DNA of 64,000 nt from Actinomycetota bacterium (GTDB lineage Bacteria > Actinomycetota > Acidimicrobiia > Acidimicrobiales > Ilumatobacteraceae): positions 2,593 to 66,592 of the forward strand of contig JBJTCB010000016.1 of assembly GCA_046091605.1 (NCBI GenBank), given 5' to 3'. Made by a program: the position numbers and the translations under genes. The notes under the pieces were generated by a model. The model saw only the letters and a program-made list of their open reading frames with translations. It had not been told where the DNA came from and ran no database searches. This document shows, piece by piece, positions 52,934 to 63,543 of this stretch (positions are counted from its first letter, which is position 1; each line of letters opens with the position of its first letter).

Positions 52934-54151
52934 ATGCCGCTCGAACTTGATCTCGGACCTGCCGCGGAGAAGTTCCGTGGGGAACTCAGGGAATGGCTGG
53001 AGGCGAACAAGCCCGCCGACCTGAGCGGGATGTCGGCCGATGTGGCCCAGCGCACCGATCTGCCCGCGGTGAAGGCATGGGCCGACACCCTCTCGGCGGC
53101 CGGATACATGTGCGTCTCATGGCCGAAGGAGTACGGCGGTGCCGGCCTCACCGGTGTCGAGGTGGCGGTGATGAACGAGGAGTTCGCGCGCGCCCGGGTG
53201 CCGCGTGTGACACGGGGGATGGGCGAGTGGCTCGTCGGGCCCTCGATCATCGTCTGGGGCACCGAGGAGCAGAAGAAGAGGTTCCTCCCGCGCATCATCG
53301 ACGGCACCGATCGGTACTGCCAGGGATTCTCCGAACCCGATGCGGGCTCGGATCTCGCGTCGTTGAAGACCAAGGGAGTGATCGACGGCGAGGAGGTCGT
53401 CATCACCGGTCAGAAGGTGTGGACCTCTGGTGCGACCGCGGCGAACATGATGTTCTGCCTGTGCCGCACCGACGACAGCGCAGCCAAGCACGCAGGTATC
53501 TCCTATGTGCTCCTGCCGATGTTCACCGGGGACGGTGCCTCCAACGGGATCGAGTTGCGTCCGATCAAGCAGCCCCACGGCGTCTCGCACTTCACCGAGA
53601 CATTCCTCACCGAGTCGCGTGCACCGGTCGCCAACATCATCGGCGGCATGAACAACGGATGGCGAGTGACTATGACCACGCTCGGCAACGAGCGCGGCGG
53701 GCACGCCACCACCCAGCACGTGGAGTACACCAAGCAGTTCTGGGAGGCCGTCGAGCTCCTCAAGGAGAAGGGCCGCACCGGTGACCCCATCATCCGCCAG
53801 GAGCTCGCGTGGGCCTACAGCCACGTCGAGATCATGCGGTTCCAGGGACTCAAGCTGCTGTCGGAGGTCGTGGCCCGCAAGGAGCCGGGCCCGGCGGCCT
53901 CGATCAACAAGATGTTCTGGTCCGAGTACGCCCAGAAGTTCACCGAGCGGATGATGAACGCGCGCGGTGCAGAGTCGATGCTGATCGAGGATGGCACCAA
54001 CGGCCGCTACGTGGCGGACCGCTGGACCTCGATGTTCTTCCAGCACCGGTCGTCGACGATCTGGGGTGGCACCGCCCAGGTGCAGCGCAACATCGTGGGC
54101 GAGAGGGTCCTCGGGCTGCCGAAGGAGCCCGATCCCAGCAAGCAGAAGTGA
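52934..54151 (+). CDS. Acyl-CoA dehydrogenase
   Basis: YCQGFSEPDAGSDLASLKT, QKVWTSGA, and C-terminal IWGGTAQVQRNIVGERVLGLP. Confidence 0.92.
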   Translation: MPLELDLGPAAEKFRGELREWLEANKPADLSGMSADVAQRTDLPAVKAWADTLSAAGYMCVSWPKEYGGAGLTGVEVAVMNEEFARARVPRVTRGMGEWLVGPSIIVWGTEEQKKRFLPRIIDGTDRYCQGFSEPDAGSDLASLKTKGVIDGEEVVITGQKVWTSGATAANMMFCLCRTDDSAAKHAGISYVLLPMFTGDGASNGIELRPIKQPHGVSHFTETFLTESRAPVANIIGGMNNGWRVTMTTLGNERGGHATTQHVEYTKQFWEAVELLKEKGRTGDPIIRQELAWAYSHVEIMRFQGLKLLSEVVARKEPGPAASINKMFWSEYAQKFTERMMNARGAESMLIEDGTNGRYVADRWTSMFFQHRSSTIWGGTAQVQRNIVGERVLGLPKEPDPSKQK

Positions 54152-54161
54152 CCGCGCGGTT

Positions 54162-54941
54162 CTAGCGTTTCGGCTTTCCGCGGCGTGGTCGGTCCGTGGT
54201 CGGGGTGTCGGAGAGTCTGAATCGGATCGGCACCGAGAGTTCTGAACGAGTCCGCGAGGCCAATCCGGCCCTGTACATCTGCGGGGGCCGGCCCGGTGAG
54301 GATCCGAAGTCGGCGTACTCATCGAGGGCCTCGACGAATCCCGGGACCTTCTCGACCTTGCGCCTGAAGTTGGCCGGGTCGACCTCGCTCTGGAAGAACG
54401 CCTCATAGACGCCGCGCAGTTCGCTGATCGTGAACTTCGGTCGGCAAAAACCGATCGCGATGCTCGTGTCCTCCAGCATCTTGGTGGCCATCTTGCGGGC
54501 GTCCTCGATGATGTCACGGTGGTCGAACTCGAGCATGTTGCGACCCCGCAGGTCGCGGTAGCGCATGAATCTGGCGTCCTCGGAGTTCAATTCGGGACCC
54601 AACTCGCCAGGATGGGGCACGAGAATCAAGTAGGCGACCGCGATCGCGCGCCATCTGTCGTCGCGATTCGGGTTGCCATAGGCGGCCACCTGGTGGAGGT
54701 CCCGCTTGTTCAGGCGAAGGCCGGTCTCTTCGGTGACCTTGCGCAGGGCCGTCTCCTCGAGCGCCTCGCCATTGCCCACGAGACCACCGGGCAGGGCCCA
54801 TCGGCCATCGCGGACCCCGGGTCGCTTCATCACGAGCACCTCGAGCCGATCCTGGGCCTCGAGCGACCTGGCTTGGTTGATCGTGAAGACGACGGTGTCG
54901 ACGTAGACGTAGAAGTCGGGCTGGACGGATCTCTTGCTCAT
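54162..54941 (-). CDS. nrtR: NrtR-like Nudix-related transcriptional regulator (Nudix domain plus C-terminal winged helix)
   Basis: Start is the internal ATG at 54941 (MSKRSVQPDFYVYVDTVVF...). The Nudix box is GGLVGNGEALEETALRKVTEETGL. The C-terminal FTISELRGVYEAFFQSEVDPANFRRKV is typical of the NrtR wHTH. Confidence 0.8.
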   Translation of the reverse strand: MSKRSVQPDFYVYVDTVVFTINQARSLEAQDRLEVLVMKRPGVRDGRWALPGGLVGNGEALEETALRKVTEETGLRLNKRDLHQVAAYGNPNRDDRWRAIAVAYLILVPHPGELGPELNSEDARFMRYRDLRGRNMLEFDHRDIIEDARKMATKMLEDTSIAIGFCRPKFTISELRGVYEAFFQSEVDPANFRRKVEKVPGFVEALDEYADFGSSPGRPPQMYRAGLASRTRSELSVPIRFRLSDTPTTDRPRRGKPKR

Positions 54942-55114
54942 CCCATCATTTTCGCAGTTTCTTGACCGAAACACCAGTTTTTCGGGATGAGTTAGGGGAA
55001 AAGTGACAAAAATCGCGTCTGCTATACTTGTCGTGCGTACACGAAACCCCGGCACAGGTCTCGTGTACAACTGTGAGCGGCACCCGGGTCCCCGGGGCCG
55101 GACAAGGAGCCCAG

Positions 55115-56647
55115 ATGACCCGAGCACCCGCCAGAACAACCACCCCCCGTCGGCGCCTCAGCGCCGCGGCTCTCGACCGGGCAATCGGTGCGATCCTCGG
55201 ATCCGCCGTGGCCGATGCGGCCGGGGCGCGATTCGAGTTCCTTCCAGCGGGTCTCTATTCGACGGAGTTCCCCACGCCAGTGCTGGGCGGAATCGGCGAG
55301 CTCGTCGGAGGTGGGTCGTTCGGATGGGCACCGGGTGAGTTCACCGATGACACCCAGATGGCACTCGCTCTCGCGGCCGCCCTCGAGGAGGCCGGAGGAT
55401 TCGACGCCGAGACGGTGTGGCGCCACTTCCGTGCATGGTGCGCCGGTGCCCGCGACGTGGGTGCCACGACCTCGACGGCCCTGCACCACGAGTCCCATGT
55501 CGGGGCGGCCGAGGCGGCCCACGAGATGCTGGGAGGACGCACCGGATCGAACGGGTCGGTGATGCGCATCGCACCGGTCGGTGTGCACGGGGTGCTCCTC
55601 GGTCGCGACGAGCTCTACCGCGTGGCAGTGGCCCAGTCGAACCTCACGCACCACGATCCGATCGCAGCCGTGGCGGCGGCGTTCGTCGCCGAGGTCATCC
55701 GCCTTCTCGTGGAGGGCGCCGGTCTCGAGGATGCGATCAGCGAAGCCTCCGACATGATGCTCGAGTCGCCACTGGGCGAGGTCTTCGAGTTCCGTCTCGC
55801 GCCGGCGCTCTCGCGCACCTGGGATCCATTCTCCGATGACGGCCCGACGAACGGCTCGGCGCGCACCGCGGTTGCCCAGGCGGTGTGGGCCGTGCGGCAC
55901 GGGGTGGACTTCCACGACGTCGTCACCTCGGTGATCGATCTCGGTGGAGACACCGACACGGTCGCTGCGATCGCGGGTGCGATGGCCGGAGCGCGCTTCG
56001 GCGCGCAAGCGATCCCCGTGCGGTGGACGACATACGTCAACGGCACGGTGGAGGGCCCCGAGGGCGTGCGCCGATACGACGCGCAGGAGCTCATCAATCT
56101 CGCGCGTCGCCTCGTGGGTCGGACGAGCTCTGACCACAATCCGCCCGAGCCGGTCACGAAACTGCAGAAGATCCATCATTGGGGTGTCTGGGCCGCCGAT
56201 CTCGGTGGAGCGGCCTCGGTCGATGTCGGCAAGGCGGTCATCTCGATGTGCCACACGGCGGACCTCTTCACGGGTCACCCGATGCGCCGTCAGGTGCTCC
56301 TGCGCGACAGCGATGCCAATCCGGGGTTGGCGACCATCGTGCGCGAGGTGGTCGATGCCATCGATGCGTTCCTCGCCGAGGGCCGCGAGGTGGTGGTGCA
56401 CTGTCACGGGGGCCGCAGCCGCACGACGCTGGCTCTGCGTGCCTGGTACATGCGCACCAACGGCGTCGACCACGAGGCCGCAGCGCAGTGGGTCGAGAAC
56501 GCGTGGCCCCATGTCGGGCGTTGGAACGACTCGTTCGAGGAGTTCCTCGACCACGAATGGCACCCCGGCACCTGGGGGACGGCACCCGGTGGGGCCGATG
56601 ACTTCGACACACAGACGCGGACCGGAGCCGCAGGGGAGGACAAGTGA
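55115..56647 (+). CDS. Fusion protein: ADP-ribosylglycohydrolase (ARH/DraG-like) domain plus Cys-based (CX5R) dual-specificity/tyrosine phosphatase-like domain
   Basis: ATG 55115 follows RBS AAGGAG. ARH metal-site motifs are GEFTDDTQMALAL and LGGDTDTVAAIAGAMAGA. The C-terminal P-loop VVVHCHGGRSRTT maps to nt 56399-56425. Confidence 0.85.
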   Translation: MTRAPARTTTPRRRLSAAALDRAIGAILGSAVADAAGARFEFLPAGLYSTEFPTPVLGGIGELVGGGSFGWAPGEFTDDTQMALALAAALEEAGGFDAETVWRHFRAWCAGARDVGATTSTALHHESHVGAAEAAHEMLGGRTGSNGSVMRIAPVGVHGVLLGRDELYRVAVAQSNLTHHDPIAAVAAAFVAEVIRLLVEGAGLEDAISEASDMMLESPLGEVFEFRLAPALSRTWDPFSDDGPTNGSARTAVAQAVWAVRHGVDFHDVVTSVIDLGGDTDTVAAIAGAMAGARFGAQAIPVRWTTYVNGTVEGPEGVRRYDAQELINLARRLVGRTSSDHNPPEPVTKLQKIHHWGVWAADLGGAASVDVGKAVISMCHTADLFTGHPMRRQVLLRDSDANPGLATIVREVVDAIDAFLAEGREVVVHCHGGRSRTTLALRAWYMRTNGVDHEAAAQWVENAWPHVGRWNDSFEEFLDHEWHPGTWGTAPGGADDFDTQTRTGAAGEDK

Positions 56648-58065
56648 CCACGGACGAGTTCGAGAGAGAACTGAGGATCATCGAGCTGATCGGGGCGCAC
56701 GCCACGATCACGCGTCGGCCGAGCCAGACCGGCGCGCGCCGCACCAGTGAGTCGAGCGATGACGAGGAGTCGCTGCGGCCCGAGGACGTCCAGTTCCCGC
56801 TGCACTTCCGCACGCTCGAGAACCGCGTCGGAGGGTCGGTGCGCCTCTACAAGAGGTTCAACGACACCTGGGTGGTGTGCATCGATGCGCGCCTGCATTC
56901 GTACCCGGATCGTCCGGCCATCCATGCCTGGCTCACGAAGAACACCGGCACGATGCCGTTCGTCCAGGCCCGTGTCGAGCCGGCCTCGGACAACCGCGTG
57001 ACGGTGTACGCGACGCATTCGTTCCTGGCCGACGAGGTCACCGACGCCGAGATCGAACAGGCCCTCGGGTCGATCGACCATGTTGCACGCCGCTGGCACC
57101 GTGAATTGCGCCAGATCGACTTCGTCGGACGGCGCGAGGATCGCGCGCGCTCGGCGTCGGCGACGGACAAGACCGACGAGGAGCACCTCACGAACGCGGT
57201 GGTGCGCAAGGCCGAGGGCACCGAGGCGGTTCTCGCAGAACTCGACACCTTGATCGGACTCATCCCGGTGAAGCAGCTCGTGCGCCGGTTGACCGCGCTC
57301 CAGCAGGTGGCGGGGATGCGCAAGGCGGCAGGAATGAAGCCCGTGGCTCCCTCGCCGCACCTGGTCTTCACCGGCAACCCGGGGACCGGCAAGACCACCG
57401 TGGCGCGCCTGATCGGGCGGCTCTACAAGGAGCTCGGACTCCTGTCGATCGGGCACGTGGTCGAGGTCGACCGTTCGGGGCTCGTGGGTGGCTATATCGG
57501 CCAGACCGCGATCAAGACGCGCGCCGTGCTCGACTCGGCCAAGGGTGGGGTGTTGTTCGTCGACGAGGCCTACACGCTGACCTCGCACCACAACAACGAC
57601 TACGGCGCCGAGGCGATCGCCACCATCTTGTCGTACATGGAGAACAACCGCGGTGAGATCGTCGTGGTGGTCGCCGGATATCCGGCAGAGATGGCCCAGT
57701 TCCTCGAGCAGAACCCGGGACTCGCCAGCCGGTTCGACCACACTCTCGACTTCCCGGACTACACCGACGACGAGCTGTTCAGCATCCTCCAGTGGATGAT
57801 CCTCGACAACGAGTACTACCTCTCGAACGGGGCCAGGGCCAAGTTGCGTCGTGTGATCGGGTCGTGGCCGAGGGGCCGCTCGTTCGGCAACGCGCGCCAA
57901 GTGCGCAGGTTGTTCAACGAGGTGGTGGCAGAGCACGCCGCGTGGTTGATCGACAAGAAGATCACCTCGGGTGAGGGGCTGCGGCTGATCCGCGAGGGAC
58001 ACGTGCAGACGGTGCCGACACTGCCGCGCGATGCGGACACCCTCGTGCCCGCCGGGTATCTCTGA
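56644..58065 (+). CDS. CbbX/SpoVK-type AAA+ ATPase with an N-terminal YbjN/chaperone-like domain
   Basis: GTG 56644 overlaps the upstream stop (GTGA). The AAA+ core has LIGLIPVKQ, Walker A GNPGTGKTT, Walker B VLFVDEAY, VVVVAGY, PGLASRF and GNARQVR. The assignment of the ~170-aa N-terminal domain (VQFPLHFRTL...VYATHSFLADEV) is tentative. Confidence 0.85.
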   Translation: MTTDEFERELRIIELIGAHATITRRPSQTGARRTSESSDDEESLRPEDVQFPLHFRTLENRVGGSVRLYKRFNDTWVVCIDARLHSYPDRPAIHAWLTKNTGTMPFVQARVEPASDNRVTVYATHSFLADEVTDAEIEQALGSIDHVARRWHRELRQIDFVGRREDRARSASATDKTDEEHLTNAVVRKAEGTEAVLAELDTLIGLIPVKQLVRRLTALQQVAGMRKAAGMKPVAPSPHLVFTGNPGTGKTTVARLIGRLYKELGLLSIGHVVEVDRSGLVGGYIGQTAIKTRAVLDSAKGGVLFVDEAYTLTSHHNNDYGAEAIATILSYMENNRGEIVVVVAGYPAEMAQFLEQNPGLASRFDHTLDFPDYTDDELFSILQWMILDNEYYLSNGARAKLRRVIGSWPRGRSFGNARQVRRLFNEVVAEHAAWLIDKKITSGEGLRLIREGHVQTVPTLPRDADTLVPAGYL

Positions 58066-58186
58066 CCGCGACCCCCACCGGGGGCTAGCGCGCGATCAAC
58101 GCGTCCCGCGTGCCACCGTGTCGGCCCCGAACCGGGCGACGGCGGCGGCATCGCAGTCACGCGGGACCCCGTGAAATTAGGCTGAG

Positions 58187-59971
58187 ATGGTGATTTGGTC
58201 GGCTCTGCGGCGGTTCGACGCCCGGTTCCACCAGCCCCGCGACTTGGCAGTGGATCGACGAATGCTCACCTCGGCGATGGTGATCGGTGCGGCCGTGTTC
58301 GCGGTCATGGTCGGCATCGTGGTGCGCATCCACGGACCGACCGTGCACCCCGATGAATTCGGGTTCCTCGCGAACGGCCAGGTGATCATCGGCCATGACG
58401 AAGCCAAGATCTTCACCCCGAGTTTCTATCCGGCAGGCTACGGCATCATCACCGGCGCGGGCGCCCTGCTCACCGGTTCGATCGAGGGCTCCTACCGGTT
58501 CGCTCTCGTGGTCAATGTGGTCCTCGTGGCCGTGCTCGCATGGTCCGTGATGCGGCTCGCGGTGCGCGGGTTCGGTGCCTCGCCGACCGCAGCCCGACTG
58601 GCGGCTGTTCTCGTCGTGGTGGCGCCGGGCACCAGCGTGAGTGCCCTGTATTCCTGGCCCGAGACTGCGGTCAGGCTCGCCTTCCTCGGCCTCGTGGCAA
58701 TGGTGGTCTTCGCCGCGCGCCGACTGACGACGGTGTCGGTGGTCGCGTTGTGCGCCTATGTGGGTCTGCTGCCGGGACTCCACGGCAGGTTCACGCTGAT
58801 GATCCCGGTTGTCTGTCTGGTCGTTGCGTGGTGGGGCTGGAAGCGCGATGTGCCGCGCCCCGCAGTCGTGGTCGCATACCTGACCACGGTTGTTGCGTAC
58901 GCGATGACGTACCTGCTCAATTCATGGGTCAAGTCGACGCTCTATCCCACCTCGATCGACCAGGAGAACCGCCTGTTGCGGCGCCTCGCGGACTACTCGA
59001 TGTGGTTCGCACTGATCCGGCGCATCGCCGGACAGGGGTGGTACCTGCTGGCAACGTCGCTCGGGGTCGCCGGTATCGCACTCGGGTGGGCCGTGGTGCG
59101 CGTGCGCGGTTCCGGCGAGCCGCGCCCGTTGCGCACCGATCCGGAGCGGCTCGCCCTGGCCGTCATGGTCGGGTGCACGGCGGTCCTGCTGTTCACCGGG
59201 GGCCTGCAGTTGCTCCACGGCAACCGCGCCGACCACCTCATCTATGGCCGCTACGTCGAGACCCTCGTGCCCGTGCTCTTGATGGTCGGCGTCGTGGCGC
59301 TCGAGCGAGCCTCGGTGGTGGCACGACGGTCGTGGAGCATCTCGCTCGTGCTCGTCGCCGTCATCGCGGCCTGCCACGTGCTCGTCGACATGGGCGATCG
59401 CGTCAAGGGCGGGTGGGTGAGGCGCACGCTCGTGTTCCCGAACGCGGTCGGCGTCGATGCGGCCCAGTACGTCATCCAGCCCGGCATCATCACCTTCACA
59501 CTGCTGTTCTGCGGGGTCGGTGCCGTTGCATGGTGGGTGCACCGCTCTCGCGGCGGGGTGGCGGTGGTGGCCATCGTGGCGGTTCTCGCGGCCGGAGCGG
59601 TGGTGTCGGGGGAGCGCAGCGTTCTCGGCCGGCAGCGGATCATCACCAATTCGGGCACGAGCCTCGAGCGAGCCACCGCGGGATCCCCGGACAAGATCGG
59701 ATACGACAACTTCGGCGATCTATCGGGGTTCTCGAACGACCCCGTGCGCCCCGGCAACGATCGCGGCTACTACTTCCTGCGGTACAAGATGCATCCGATC
59801 CGGCTCGATCGCATCGATGTGTCGAGTCCCGCGGCGAAGATTCCGGCGGAGTACCGTTGTGTCTACGCCCGCATCGAGGAACCACCGAGCGACGGTGAGT
59901 GGGCCCCGGTGGCCGACGAGCCGCTCCTCGGGCGGGTGTTGTTCATGCGGGTCGGCGCGAACAGGTGTTGA
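58187..59971 (+). CDS. Large polytopic membrane protein, putative GT-C-fold glycosyltransferase
   Basis: At least 10 TM segments, an acidic motif in the first external loop (HPDEFGF), and a C-terminal soluble domain. It is adjacent to a GtrB/DPM1-like GT2. The start is uncertain. Confidence 0.55.
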   Translation: MVIWSALRRFDARFHQPRDLAVDRRMLTSAMVIGAAVFAVMVGIVVRIHGPTVHPDEFGFLANGQVIIGHDEAKIFTPSFYPAGYGIITGAGALLTGSIEGSYRFALVVNVVLVAVLAWSVMRLAVRGFGASPTAARLAAVLVVVAPGTSVSALYSWPETAVRLAFLGLVAMVVFAARRLTTVSVVALCAYVGLLPGLHGRFTLMIPVVCLVVAWWGWKRDVPRPAVVVAYLTTVVAYAMTYLLNSWVKSTLYPTSIDQENRLLRRLADYSMWFALIRRIAGQGWYLLATSLGVAGIALGWAVVRVRGSGEPRPLRTDPERLALAVMVGCTAVLLFTGGLQLLHGNRADHLIYGRYVETLVPVLLMVGVVALERASVVARRSWSISLVLVAVIAACHVLVDMGDRVKGGWVRRTLVFPNAVGVDAAQYVIQPGIITFTLLFCGVGAVAWWVHRSRGGVAVVAIVAVLAAGAVVSGERSVLGRQRIITNSGTSLERATAGSPDKIGYDNFGDLSGFSNDPVRPGNDRGYYFLRYKMHPIRLDRIDVSSPAAKIPAEYRCVYARIEEPPSDGEWAPVADEPLLGRVLFMRVGANRC

Positions 59972-59995
59972 GCCGGCGGCGAGGAGAGAGACCAG

Positions 59996-60904
59996 ATGAG
60001 CACCACCCACCAGCCCGACACCTGCGACGTGAGCGTGGTGCTGCCGATCTACAACGAGAAGGGTCATCTGCGCGCCGAGATCGACCGCATCCGTGCCGCG
60101 CTCGATGCGTCCCGGCACACCCACGAGATCATCGTCGTCGATGACGGCTCGAACGACGGCTCCGAGACCGAACTCGCCACGATCCCGGGCATCATCCTGA
60201 TCACCCACCGCCGCAACCAGGGCAGCGGTGCGGCACGGCGCACGGGCACGACGGCCGCTCGAGGGCGTGTGGTGGTGTGGACCGACGTCGACATGACGTA
60301 TCCGAACGATCGGATCCCCGAATTGGTGGATGCCATGGAGGGGTGGGATCACATCGTCGGGTGGCGCCAGAGCGAGGAGGGCACGCACAAGTTCCTGCGC
60401 ACGCCCGCCAAATGGGTGATCCGCAAGCTCGCGTCGTACCTGTCCGAGACCGACATCAAGGATCTGAACTCGGGTCTGCGCGCATTCAGGCGCGATGTCG
60501 CGATGCAGTACGTGCATGATCTCCCGAAGGGTTTCTCGTGCGTCACGACCCTGACGATGTCGTTCCTGGGGAACGGCTACTCGGTCGGGTTCCTCCCGAT
60601 CGAGTACTTCCCGCGCGCGGGGCGGTCGAAGTTCCACTGGTTGCGCGACACTCGCCGGTACCTGTTGCAGGTCATCCGCATGACGCTGTCGTACAACCCG
60701 TTGAAGGTGTTCCTGCCGGTGGGATTGGTCCTGCTCGGCCTCGGATTCGTGAAACTGGGATTCGACTGGGCCGAACGCGACTTCCGTCTCGCGGCCAACA
60801 CCCTCCTCATCTTCTTCGCCGCACTCCAGGTGATCGCCGTCGGCCTTCTCGCAGACCTCGTCGTGCGCGCCACCAAGTCGGCCTCGTCCGTGCCGCCGGC
60901 ATAG
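59996..60904 (+). CDS. Family 2 glycosyltransferase, polyprenyl-phosphate sugar synthase type (GtrB/DPM1-like) with C-terminal TM helices
   Basis: VSVVLPIYNE, IIVVDDGSNDGS, TDVDMTY (DxD), and two C-terminal TM helices. Confidence 0.9.
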   Translation: MSTTHQPDTCDVSVVLPIYNEKGHLRAEIDRIRAALDASRHTHEIIVVDDGSNDGSETELATIPGIILITHRRNQGSGAARRTGTTAARGRVVVWTDVDMTYPNDRIPELVDAMEGWDHIVGWRQSEEGTHKFLRTPAKWVIRKLASYLSETDIKDLNSGLRAFRRDVAMQYVHDLPKGFSCVTTLTMSFLGNGYSVGFLPIEYFPRAGRSKFHWLRDTRRYLLQVIRMTLSYNPLKVFLPVGLVLLGLGFVKLGFDWAERDFRLAANTLLIFFAALQVIAVGLLADLVVRATKSASSVPPA

Positions 60905-60919
60905 GGGGGCGGCGTCCTC

Positions 60920-62176
60920 GTGCAGCGCCCGGTGCGCCTCGCGTTCCTCGGAGCGGCGCTCTCTGCCAACAAGGGTGCCGCGGCCATGGTGGAGTCGGTG
61001 GTGCAGAACACGCCGCGGCGCGTCGGTGACTGCGAGTTCGCGCTCCTCACCACGTACCCGCGCGAGGATTCGGCGCGTGTGCCCCCGGGGGTGCCGATGC
61101 GGGTGGTCGGTCTCGAGCCGTGGCGACTCGCACTCGTCGAATTCCCCGTCGCGCTGCTCTCGGCGCTCCTCGCACTCGTGGGAATCCCGCGTGGCTGGGT
61201 GCGCACCCGTGCGAACCGCGCCCTCCTCGGGGGAGATGCCGCGCTCGATGTCGCGGGCATCTCGTTCGTCGACGGCCGCGGAGTGCCGATCACCGTGTAC
61301 ACCGCGCTCATGACGGGACTGCCCCTGCTACTCGGCGTGCCCACCCTCAAATTGGCACAGGCGACGGGGCCTTTCGCGACCCAGCCGAACCGCGCACTGG
61401 CTCGGCTGGTGTTGCCCCGGCTCGCCGCGGTGTGCGCGCGGGGGGCACGCACGCGTGAGCACCTCGACGCGCTCGATCTCGACAACGTGGTCGATGTCGC
61501 CGATCTCGCCTTCTCGCTCGAGGAGGCCGCCGCTCTTCCCGCCGATGTCGCCGACTCGATCGGCGCGGTGGGTGAGCATCTCGTGGTGATGCCGAGCGCT
61601 GTCGTGCGGAGGCTGTTCGAACGCGACGGACGGACGGGTGACCACGACTATGTCGGGGCGATGGTGGATCTCGTGCGCGAGTTGCGCTCGCGCACGGGAC
61701 TCGCCGTGGTGATCGCACCGCACTCGTACCGGGCCGGTGCGCCCGAGGGTCGCATGAACGACGGCCCCGTGTGCCGCGAGATCGCCGCGCACATGGAGAG
61801 CGACGATGGTGTCGTGCTGGTCGATGCCGATCTCACGGCCGGCGAGTTGCGTCGAGTCGTGTCCGGGGCGCGGCTGCTCGTCACGAGCAGGTTCCACGCG
61901 ATGATCTCGGGGTTGGCCACGTGCACGCCCACGGTGGTGGTCGGATGGAGTCACAAGTACCGCGAGGTGCTCGGTGACTTCGGGCTCGCCGATCTCGGAT
62001 GCGATGCGGTGCAGTTGGCAACGCCGGGTGCGATCGCCGACTTGGTCGAGGCGACTCTGGCCCGCCACGATCAGGTTGCACGCACGATCGGTGCGGGCCT
62101 CGCCGCCGTGCGCGCCAGATCCGAGCGCAATTTCGACGAGATCGCGCGCGTGGTCGCAGAGCGGGGAGACCAGTGA
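60920..62176 (+). CDS. Polysaccharide pyruvyl transferase family protein (WcaK/CsaB-like)
   Basis: GTG 60920. N-terminal LGAALSANKGAAAMVESV and C-terminal LLVTSRFHAMISGLATCTPTVVVGWSHKY. Confidence 0.8.
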   Translation: MQRPVRLAFLGAALSANKGAAAMVESVVQNTPRRVGDCEFALLTTYPREDSARVPPGVPMRVVGLEPWRLALVEFPVALLSALLALVGIPRGWVRTRANRALLGGDAALDVAGISFVDGRGVPITVYTALMTGLPLLLGVPTLKLAQATGPFATQPNRALARLVLPRLAAVCARGARTREHLDALDLDNVVDVADLAFSLEEAAALPADVADSIGAVGEHLVVMPSAVVRRLFERDGRTGDHDYVGAMVDLVRELRSRTGLAVVIAPHSYRAGAPEGRMNDGPVCREIAAHMESDDGVVLVDADLTAGELRRVVSGARLLVTSRFHAMISGLATCTPTVVVGWSHKYREVLGDFGLADLGCDAVQLATPGAIADLVEATLARHDQVARTIGAGLAAVRARSERNFDEIARVVAERGDQ

Positions 62177-63543
62177 TGACCGACGGCGGGAGCGTCACCG
62201 GGGATCTCTCGGGGGTCATCGCCTCGGGCATGTGCATCGGCTGCGGCGCCTGCGAGATGGCCGATGGGTCGGTGCGGGTGAGCCTGGATCCGAAGCGGTT
62301 GATCTTCCAGCCCGAGACGCCGGGGGGCCTCGATGCGGCCGCGGTGTGCCCGGCGGTGAGGGTCGACTACGCGGGTTTGCAGTCGTGGTTGTTCCCGGGG
62401 GCCGAGATCGGCCCCTATGGCGCGGTGCGCTCGGTGCACCTGTCGCAGAGCACCGATGAGGGCCGCAACCTGCGCGCATCGTCGGGCGGACTCATCAAGG
62501 AAGTGCTGCGCTCGATGTTGTCTGCCGATCGGATCGACGGGGTCATCGCCCTCGACCATGTGGAGGGTCTCGACTTCGCCGCGCGCCTCGTCACCGACCC
62601 CGCCGACGTCGACACGCTTCCCGGATCGATCTACCACAACCTGCGCCAGACGAGCGCGCTCGAGTTGCTGCGCGACACTCCCGGTCGGCTCGCGATCGTG
62701 GGCATTCCGTGCCAATTGGAGGGCATGTGGCAGTGGGTGCGCACCAAGGCTCCGCACCTGCGCGACAAGGTGGTGCTCACGGTGGGTCTGCTGTGTGGAT
62801 GGCAGTACTCGCACCACAGCATCGCCGCGATGGGCCAGTACCTGGGCTTCGATCCGGCCGAAATCGACGACATCTCCTATCGCGGCGGGGGACCGGTGGG
62901 CAAGCTCACCGTCACCACCGGCGACGGTGGTTCGTTCTCGGCGAGTCGCCGTGTCGACTTCGGCTACCAAGTGGCCTTCGATCGGCATTTCAACACGGCG
63001 CGGTGCCACGTGTGCGTGAACCACTCGAATTTCCTCGCCGACCTCGTGGTGGGAGATGCCTGGCTTCCGAGCACGGTGTTCACCAAGACCGGCGTCAGTC
63101 TCGTGGTGTGCCGCACCGCACTGGCCGAGGAGGTGCTCGCGGGGCTGGTCTCTGACGGTCGCTGCGTGTCGATCGAGGTCGGCCCCGACGAGATCCGCGA
63201 GTCGCAGACGGATCGGGTCGTGTTCGGGGAGTTCGCCTACGCCTATGCCGACCATCTGCGCGCGCTCGGGGGTCACGTGCCCGACTTGCACGGGCCGAAC
63301 GAGGGCCACGGCACGCTGAAACCACGCCGCCAGGTCGCCAAGTTCCATCGCGAGCTCGTCCGCAAGCAGGCGCTGATGGCCGCCCGGCGCTACCGGTACC
63401 TCAAGTGGCGCAAGGCCACGCTCGAGGTGCGCTCGTATGTGATGCGCTACGTGCGGTGGTTCGCGGTGCGGATCCTGCGGGTCAAGAGCCTCTCGGGCCA
63501 GCGCCGCGAGATCCCGCGCGAGCGGTTCTCAGGCTTCCGCTGA
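62176..63543 (+). CDS. Coenzyme F420 hydrogenase/dehydrogenase beta-subunit (FrhB)-like protein
   Basis: ATG 62176 overlaps the preceding TGA by 1 nt. Motifs are CIGCGACEMA, ASSGGLIKE, IVGIPCQLEG and the Cys-rich CHVCVNHSNFLADLVVGDAW. Confidence 0.85.
   Translation: MTDGGSVTGDLSGVIASGMCIGCGACEMADGSVRVSLDPKRLIFQPETPGGLDAAAVCPAVRVDYAGLQSWLFPGAEIGPYGAVRSVHLSQSTDEGRNLRASSGGLIKEVLRSMLSADRIDGVIALDHVEGLDFAARLVTDPADVDTLPGSIYHNLRQTSALELLRDTPGRLAIVGIPCQLEGMWQWVRTKAPHLRDKVVLTVGLLCGWQYSHHSIAAMGQYLGFDPAEIDDISYRGGGPVGKLTVTTGDGGSFSASRRVDFGYQVAFDRHFNTARCHVCVNHSNFLADLVVGDAWLPSTVFTKTGVSLVVCRTALAEEVLAGLVSDGRCVSIEVGPDEIRESQTDRVVFGEFAYAYADHLRALGGHVPDLHGPNEGHGTLKPRRQVAKFHRELVRKQALMAARRYRYLKWRKATLEVRSYVMRYVRWFAVRILRVKSLSGQRREIPRERFSGFR

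Follow-up and report, generated by a model that had tools for sequence, protein, structure and literature searches.

Why should an ADP-ribosylglycohydrolase (ARH) be joined to a phosphatase, be followed by a chaperone-headed AAA+ ATPase and be faced by an NrtR-like regulator, at a locus where the source of ADP-ribosylation, be it a phage, a toxin or an endogenous transferase, is not encoded? This question is raised by three genes at positions 54162-58065 of a 64,000-nt stretch of the Ilumatobacteraceae contig JBJTCB010000016.1 (assembly GCA_046091605.1, positions 2,593-66,592), which is referred to below as the window. The products of these genes have identifiable domains with intact catalytic motifs, the two enzyme genes are coupled in an operon, and the set is strictly co-inherited. 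We favour, with moderate confidence, the interpretation that the locus is an inducible three-gene module that handles ADP-ribosylated macromolecules. By its domain composition, it can be assigned to a class of computationally predicted systems termed 'ARG-centric', of which it would be a minimal version: the regulator, the bifunctional enzyme and the ATPase are each present once, which offers a clear experimental handle. The module is conserved in abundant freshwater Acidimicrobiia.

Gene organization and protein domains

The regulator gene (54162-54941, minus strand, 259 aa) is divergent from a two-gene operon, from which it is separated by a 173-nt control region (54942-55114) with a lower GC content than the sequences on either side (~0.58 vs 0.63-0.71). 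The operon consists of the gene for an ARH-phosphatase fusion protein (55115-56647, plus strand, 510 aa) and the gene for the AAA+ ATPase (56644-58065, plus strand, 473 aa). The two genes overlap by 4 nt (GTGA, 56644-56647), the GTG start codon of the ATPase gene being located at 56644 and the TGA stop codon of the fusion gene at 56645-56647, and they are translationally coupled. A ribosome-binding site, GGAG (55106-55109), precedes the ATG of the fusion gene at 55115, and another, GGGGAGG, is located 4-5 nt upstream of the GTG of the ATPase gene. The three open reading frames (ORFs), the comparatively AT-rich spacer and the overlap had been proposed in an earlier description of the locus that was made from the sequence alone (the original prediction), and all of them were confirmed. 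Longer ORFs, starting from TTG at 55139 (regulator) and TTG at 55028 (fusion), were dropped, because the orthologues use the shorter starts. Also as described earlier, neither an ADP-ribosyltransferase nor a DarT-like gene was found among the flanking genes, which encode metabolic and envelope functions (fatty-acid-type and envelope-polysaccharide enzymes).

In the fusion protein, the Pfam profile ADP_ribosyl_GH matched residues 25-302 (1.3e-59), and the profiles DSPc (7.9e-9) and Tc-R-P (4.4e-6) matched residues 392-467. The ARH domain (55187-56020, plus strand) is of the DraG/Tri1 type, its closest solved relatives in the Protein Data Bank (PDB) being DraG (2woc, 1.4e-26) and Tri1 (6dre, 5.5e-26). 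Its metal-binding and catalytic residues (E41, T77, D78, D79, D114, D279, D281, and T282), which cover both metal-site motifs, show little or no variation among 23 diverse homologues; they align to the dinuclear-metal active site of DraG, which appears to be intact, and include what we take to be the equivalent of D97 in DraG numbering. The scores obtained with the equivalog models for DraG (TIGR02662, 130.8 vs a cut-off of 337) and Tri1 (116 vs 490) are far below the cut-offs, and the protein differs from both in its additional phosphatase domain and in its context, i.e. no DraT, Tre1, or nitrogenase context was found at the locus. The protein was therefore rejected as DraG or Tri1 proper.

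The second domain of the fusion protein (56288-56515, plus strand) is a Cys-based phosphatase domain of the dual-specificity type, with the motif HCHGGRSRT (C430 and R436) and D398. Both profile matches are above the cut-offs, for DSPc marginally (35.9 bits vs 33.5) and for Tc-R-P at 27.6 vs 27, and the HCxGGxSRT loop and D398, which lies 32 residues N-terminal of it, are invariant among the 23 homologues. In searches against the PDB, the phosphatase profile matched atypical dual-specificity phosphatases (DSPs), catalytic domains of mitogen-activated protein kinase phosphatases and PTPMT1, with the DSPs at 3e-7; a baculoviral polynucleotide 5'-phosphatase was also matched weakly. Thus, both halves of the original assignment, an apparently intact ARH domain and a fused CX5R phosphatase, are borne out by the profiles and by the conserved residues. 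More than 1100 homologues share this architecture. They are concentrated in Acidimicrobiia (Ilumatobacteraceae and freshwater lineages), with further occurrences in Geodermatophilaceae, Kineococcus, and a small number of metagenome-assembled genomes (MAGs) labelled as other phyla. In Blastococcus xanthinilyticus (locus L068, 10468-10833), the phosphatase domain is additionally encoded by itself ~3 kb from the fusion gene, this second copy being 40% identical to residues 357-479 of the fusion protein.

The ATPase was matched by the Pfam profiles AAA (2.2e-15) and AAA_lid_6 (1.7e-7). Its AAA+ module (57232-57993, plus strand) is CbbX-like, as originally proposed, and contains a Walker A motif (GNPGTGKT), a Walker B motif (VLFVDEAY), a G-Y-I-G pore loop and a lid; the Walker motifs and the pore loop form invariant or conserved columns among the orthologues. 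The closest solved relative is CbbX (3zuh, 4.6e-60), to which the module is also strongly similar residue by residue, followed by EccA1 (4e-46). CbbX, the activase of red-type Rubisco, remodels its client by threading a terminal peptide, and its pore-loop Tyr and lid are kept in the present protein, but CbbX has neither an N-terminal chaperone domain nor the C-terminal G-Y-L sequence described below, and the locus has no Rubisco context. The NCBIfam scores for CbbX (TIGR02880, 240 vs 459), SpoVK (275 vs 423), and EccA (218 vs 467) are all below the cut-offs, and the protein was rejected as a member of any of these three groups proper on the basis of these scores and its context. It represents a distinct orthologous group, for which the N-domain and the C-terminal tail are diagnostic.

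The N-domain of the ATPase (56644-57159, plus strand) gave no significant Pfam match. The best match was TY-Chap1 (E-value of 0.02-0.05), and TY-Chap1, YbjN, and CesT were all found below the threshold at E-values of 0.02-0.1; the profile of the domain matched no PDB sequence. An AlphaFold model based on 13 orthologues was obtained with a predicted local distance difference test (pLDDT) score of 86 and has the topology alpha-beta(4)-alpha-beta(2)-long alpha. The top Foldseek matches in the PDB were members of the YbjN family (YbjN 6vu7, AmyR 5frk, 2plg, and DR_1245) and class I chaperones of type III secretion systems (T3SSs; SycH, ExsC, CesT, VecA, SpcU, and others). Because the best matches are uniformly of these two kinds, the model supports the YbjN-like character of the domain, which had been part of the original prediction, at the level of the fold, i.e. 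the T3SS-chaperone/YbjN (TY-chaperone) fold. A word-index search with the N-domain alone returned nothing, and an exhaustive HMMER search of 1.84 billion proteins was used instead; it yielded 12 representatives at 50% clustering. All of these combine the N-domain with an AAA+ module, except for two truncated fragments and a 1,085-aa repeat protein, which is unlikely to be a true relative.

The regulator was matched by the Pfam profiles NUDIX (6e-16) and NrtR_WHD (1.6e-12) and, over its full length, by two solved proteins of the NrtR family, AraR (5bs6, 1.5e-21) and Shewanella NrtR (3gz5, 8e-16), in agreement with its earlier assignment. It consists of a NUDIX-fold sensor (residues 31-147), an NrtR winged helix (residues 168-224), and a basic C-terminal tail. 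In its Nudix box (G-x5-E-x7-R-K-V-T-E-E-T-G), RE is replaced by RK, i.e. the first Glu of REUXEE is Lys. This replacement is found in all regulators of the clade that carries the complete trio, whereas the NrtR-like neighbours of more distant fusion genes have RELxEETG or a degenerate box. Because of the replacement, the regulator probably acts as a sensor that binds its ligand rather than hydrolysing it. NrtR proteins are released from DNA by ADP-ribose, and their 21-bp operators share a GT-N7-AC core (Rodionov et al. 2008, PMC2330246).

Conservation and relation to published systems

Gene neighbourhoods were surveyed from the fusion side at 80 genome loci. The complete trio was found at ~20 genome loci, where the fusion protein is at least ~50% identical to that of the window. 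In Ilumatobacteraceae, it is part of a conserved block, in which genes for a luciferase-like protein, an enoyl-CoA hydratase, a hydrolase, and an acyl-CoA dehydrogenase precede the module and genes for a membrane protein, a glycosyltransferase of family 2 (GT2), a pyruvyl transferase, and an FrhB-like protein follow it. Since such shared synteny alone could reflect inheritance, loci were also sampled from the ATPase side, using the most distant members of the N-domain family (27-40% identical) and ten metagenome loci. In this sample, the fusion gene is located immediately upstream of the ATPase gene in 14 of 14 informative loci, and the NrtR-like gene is divergent beyond the fusion gene in all 11 loci with enough flanking sequence. 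The flanks are unlike those in the window and contain amidase/acyltransferase, PD-(D/E)XK, or rhodopsin/photolyase-related genes. Loci L082, L083, and L084-86 carry the trio between different flanks, and the 4-nt overlap between the fusion and ATPase genes recurs in L082 and L083. The conservation is far above what chance would give, and the combination of unrelated flanks with a recurring overlap indicates a functional unit that is mobile over long timescales, and the N-domain family appears to exist only as the partner of the fusion enzyme. Co-localization, on which the original prediction depended together with its ARH, CX5R phosphatase, and NrtR assignments, was thus found in many genomes, both in shared synteny and between unrelated flanks, and the profile searches back all three assignments.

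More distant relatives of the fusion gene are flanked by genes for ARPP-1 (Pfam, 1.5e-59), HD_4, and NERD-UvrD and RecB-like superfamily 1 helicase-nuclease proteins, and weak von Willebrand factor A (vWA) matches are also found among their neighbours. In fusion loci without NrtR, a WYL/PafC double regulator is present, i.e. the two types of regulator alternate. The accreted modules (ARPP-1, HD, and nuclease-helicases) are variable and occur in some fusion lineages, whereas synteny in the Ilumatobacteraceae clade is fixed.

A class of systems with this composition has been predicted computationally. As described in the text of Iyer, Burroughs, Anantharaman, and Aravind (2022, Viruses 14:1977, PMC9503650), ARG-centric systems contain an ARG domain without a transferase, which is fused or adjacent to a phosphatase of the rhodanese-phosphatase superfamily. 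Their regulators are of the Nudix-HTH or WYL type, their chaperones include vWA, SseB, and TY-Chap1-3 of the T3SS/YbjN superfamily, and their variable genes encode nuclease-helicase, HD, Macro/NADAR, and ARPP proteins. In section 3.8 of that paper, these systems are proposed to reverse phage-imposed ADP-ribosylation and to be de-repressed by the released ADP-ribose. The locus in the window shares the ARH domain without a linked transferase, the Cys phosphatase in the same polypeptide, and the Nudix-HTH (NrtR-like) regulator, with WYL in other loci of the same fusion. It also shares the T3SS/YbjN-type chaperone fold, although here this is fused to an AAA+ module and TY-Chap1 is matched below the threshold. 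The suggested ADP-ribose-induced de-repression circuit is the one put forward in section 3.8, and the relatives of the fusion gene lie beside ARPP-1, HD, vWA, and nuclease-helicase genes. The clustering of gene neighbourhoods thus arrived at the published set of partners by an independent route. The text of the paper names free-standing chaperones and, within that text, no AAA+ protein or ATPase, in contrast to the present locus, where the TY-chaperone fold is joined to a CbbX-like AAA+ module with an invariant G-Y-L end.

An earlier precedent is the nrtR1-draG-SCO1765 regulon of Streptomyces, which Rodionov et al. (2008, PMC2330246) placed in the category 'reversible protein ADP-ribosylation'. 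It likewise couples an NrtR-family regulator to an ADP-ribosylglycohydrolase, but it is written as one unit, not as a divergon, and that paper names neither a phosphatase fusion nor an AAA+ protein. No other paper joining these components was found in the literature searched. The earlier statement that no characterized system has this composition therefore holds for experimentally characterized systems, but not for predicted ones: the NrtR-DraG combination was listed in 2008, the class was predicted in 2022, and the circuit of removal, remodelling, and sensing suggested originally is essentially that of the ARG-centric model as given in section 3.8. Because the class has already been predicted in print, novelty is limited to the variant. 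What appears to be new is the fusion of a TY-chaperone to an AAA+ module with a proteasome-activator-like tail, strictly coupled to an ARH-phosphatase. Within the literature searched, and as far as the text of the 2022 paper goes, the ARG-centric systems are the only proposal, itself computational, for how bacteria undo or dispose of proteins that were ADP-ribosylated by phages or toxins.

Proposed function and alternative explanations

We infer the ligand and the substrates, in which direction the operon is regulated, and what becomes of the client as follows. The NrtR-like protein is most likely a repressor of the divergent operon, and probably of its own gene, that acts from sites around the -10 element and the leader, and it would leave the DNA when ADP-ribose or a close derivative builds up. 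By homology to DraG and Tri1, the ARH domain most likely cleaves ADP-ribose off arginine-type adducts on proteins. The fused phosphatase probably acts on a phosphate group, either of the ADP-ribose-derived product that is set free or of the same target. The chaperone head of the ATPase would bind the modified client, which would be pulled through a hexameric pore like that of CbbX, and the freed ADP-ribose would act back on the repressor. The fusion of a chaperone fold to a threading AAA+ module implies active remodelling or destruction of the client, beyond the removal of the mark.

Several observations weigh against this interpretation. The three close relatives L007, L008, and L034, which have otherwise identical synteny, contain NrtR and the fusion gene without the ATPase gene, the membrane-protein gene being located directly downstream of the fusion gene, and the ATPase is therefore not essential to the core of the module. 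In Ilumatobacteraceae, the module occupies one fixed syntenic position among housekeeping genes, whereas a defence island would be variable, and this makes an anti-phage role less likely; the PADLOC defence models likewise returned nothing but generic AAA/Nudix noise and assigned no catalogued defence system. The regulator reaches 74.3 bits with the NCBIfam NtrR equivalog model (NF050029), the cut-off of which is 400, and is a family-level member of NrtR rather than an orthologue of the characterized repressor. The orthologous spacers did not yield any 21-bp palindromic operator that they all share, and the substrate class of the phosphatase cannot be read from its sequence.

That the three genes are unrelated neighbours, kept together by the shared ancestry of one syntenic block, could be argued from Ilumatobacteraceae, where the whole region from the acyl-CoA dehydrogenase to the glycosyltransferases is syntenic, but this explanation is contradicted by the different flanks in L082, L083, and L084-86, the occurrence of the N-domain family solely beside the fusion gene, the preserved stop-start overlap, and the exchange of the regulator for WYL in other clades, as expected of a functional module; we regard it as highly improbable. 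A more serious alternative, although still an unlikely one, is that the enzymes turn over small molecules instead of proteins, namely free derivatives of ADP-ribose, for example signals in which it is phosphorylated, acetylated, or cyclized or toxic products of the breakdown of nicotinamide adenine dinucleotide (NAD), and that NrtR ties their expression to NAD/ADP-ribose homeostasis. A fusion of a glycohydrolase with a phosphatase would suit a phospho-sugar nucleotide, some ARH enzymes hydrolyse O-acetyl-ADP-ribose, and the locus in Ilumatobacteraceae is a stable housekeeping one. NrtR regulons, furthermore, mostly concern NAD metabolism (PMC2330246). However, no NAD biosynthesis or salvage genes were found near the module in the window, among solved structures the ARH domain is closest to DraG and Tri1, both protein-arginine hydrolases, and the obligate partner in this clade is a peptide-binding chaperone fold on a threading AAA+ module, which points to protein clients.

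The handling of ADP-ribosylated macromolecules might also end in degradation rather than in repair. The last three codons of the ATPase gene (58054-58062, plus strand) encode G-Y-L, which follows a linker that is variable in both length and sequence and is left disordered in the AlphaFold model (pLDDT <50 for residues 458-473). This G-Y-L is invariant in 26 orthologues, and all 33 full-length members of the family, including those that are only ~30% identical, end in G-Y-[LI], whereas none of the 96 top-scoring paralogous SpoVK/CbbX-like matches has a penultimate Tyr. In this conserved penultimate Tyr, the family resembles the HbYX/GQYL proteasome activators. Mpa/ARC and PafE/Bpa cannot do without a C-terminal GQYL, the Tyr of which is essential whereas its Gln is dispensable, and the activators recognized for the bacterial proteasome in a 2025 review are Mpa, PafE, and Cpa only (PMC12288473, PMC6017811). 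Like Mpa/ARC and PafE/Bpa, the present family would form rings with a flexible C-terminus, but its ATPase is of the CbbX/SpoVK type rather than the PAN/Mpa type and lacks a coiled-coil/OB domain.

It is thus conceivable, if doubtful, that the ATPase is a proteasome-docking unfoldase, the G-Y-L of which enters the alpha-ring of the 20S proteasome as the GQYL of Mpa and PafE/Bpa does. The chaperone head would then pick clients for the proteasome, with the ARH-phosphatase serving either to take off or recycle the ADP-ribose or to label the clients. The tail that is kept after a disordered linker, the tolerance of the known activators for loss of the Gln, and the G-Y-I-G pore loop, which is typical of threading AAA+ proteins, are in favour of this explanation. 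So is the taxonomic distribution: all loci bearing the ATPase have record titles of Actinomycetota lineages, whereas the fusion gene alone is also found under other phyla, and bacterial proteasomes have been reported almost only in Actinomycetota. In addition, a pupylation locus is present in Acidimicrobiales (PMC3511204). On the other side, the residue preceding the Tyr is Gly, i.e. neither Gln nor hydrophobic, and the tail could instead bind the chaperone head, as an autoinhibitory element, or the partner enzyme. Searches with PrcA, PrcB, and Pup query sequences gave no match, either within the window or across ~1 Mb of sequence from related loci, a result that is uninformative on whole genomes. 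The broader claim, that the ATPase is an unrecognized proteasomal ATPase of Actinomycetota and the module a Pup-independent route coupling ADP-ribosylation to proteasomal degradation, is equally tentative. If G-Y-L does dock on the 20S particle, the family would represent a new class of activator for the bacterial proteasome and a link between ADP-ribosylation and proteolysis in bacteria.

Control region and flanking genes

The layout of the control region between the regulator and the operon is kept among the orthologous loci. On the regulator side, a 20-bp palindrome, CCGAAACAC-CA-GTTTTTCGG (54966-54985), is a candidate operator. A palindrome between nrtR and the -10 element is also present in related loci, but its sequence varies by group, e.g. 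CGAAA-N9-TTTCG in L001. In a de novo search for one palindromic operator in all orthologous spacers, only CCCTT-N7-AAGGG was obtained, which is present in 7 freshwater loci (vs at most 2 in shuffled sequences) and is not found in the window. The candidate promoter of the operon is an extended -10-like sequence, TGcTATACT (55020-55028, plus strand), the equivalent of which, TGTGCTATATT, is kept in 14 related spacers and is the form found in the freshwater group. A scan for consensus sigma-70 promoters returned nothing in the absence of a -35 element, and terminator-like sites were at background level; the -10 assignment is thus a candidate based on conservation. Directly downstream of it lies a candidate NrtR-type operator core, GT-N7-AC (GTCGTGCGTAC, 55030-55040), and such a core was read off the alignment, without statistics, at the equivalent position in L001, L016, and most of the freshwater loci.

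Two further elements are located in the putative leader. An inverted repeat (55037-55068, plus strand) is composed of 12-nt arms, GTACACGAAACC and GGTCTCGTGTAC, that are 92% complementary and separated by an 8-nt loop; the equivalent arms, GTTGTACC...GGTACAAC, are present in L016 and L001, the two nearest genome relatives. It may be either a hairpin in the 5' leader or a long palindromic site or operator. A GC-rich hairpin, CCCGGG-tc-CCCGGG (55083-55096, plus strand), ends ~10 nt upstream of the GGAG of the fusion gene. Its position is shared by most orthologous loci (including L001-L016 and L034), but its stem differs in sequence, with apparent covariation, which suggests an RNA element rather than a protein-binding site. 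A search of 54100-58300 against Rfam gave nothing relevant, and the leader hairpins match no known riboswitch or leader.

In the window, the regulator gene ends 10 nt from a convergent acyl-CoA dehydrogenase gene. On the other side of the module, a gene at 58187-59971 encodes a 594-aa multi-pass membrane protein without a Pfam match, which is always located downstream of the module in Ilumatobacteraceae, and it is followed, up to 63543, by genes for a GT2 glycosyltransferase, a polysaccharide pyruvyl transferase, and an FrhB/FdhB-like protein. The genes at 58187-63543 look like an envelope-polysaccharide pyruvylation cluster, which is outside the module elsewhere; the membrane-protein and glycosyltransferase genes were rejected as parts of the module, since they are absent from the loci with a different context.

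At related loci, additional genes were noted. In 10 loci (L007, L008, L010, L014, L015, L022-L025, and L034), a gene of 223-278 aa with a DxSxS-type motif and weak VWA_2/VWA matches is located directly downstream of the NrtR-like gene; it is absent from the window. The WYL-type loci (L018, L019, L026, L028, L029, L031, and L037) contain conserved genes of ~260 aa (clusters 14 and 23) and ~120-140 aa (cluster 11) without a Pfam match, which may represent further chaperone or effector families. Several MAGs (L003-L005, L012, L013, L016, L019, L023, and L054) carry the acidimicrobial locus, mostly with its synteny, under titles such as 'uncultured Bifidobacterium sp.' and 'Bifidobacterium breve' in several cases and beta-proteobacterium, Oscillospiraceae, or Acidobacteriota in others, and these taxonomic labels are probably wrong. 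Two metagenome contigs of the Joint Genome Institute, L087 (Ga0169931_10011509) and L088 (Ga0194123_10000373), contain the module at 98-99 and 89-96% protein identity, respectively, and the samples from which they were obtained contain the organism of the window or one very closely related to it.

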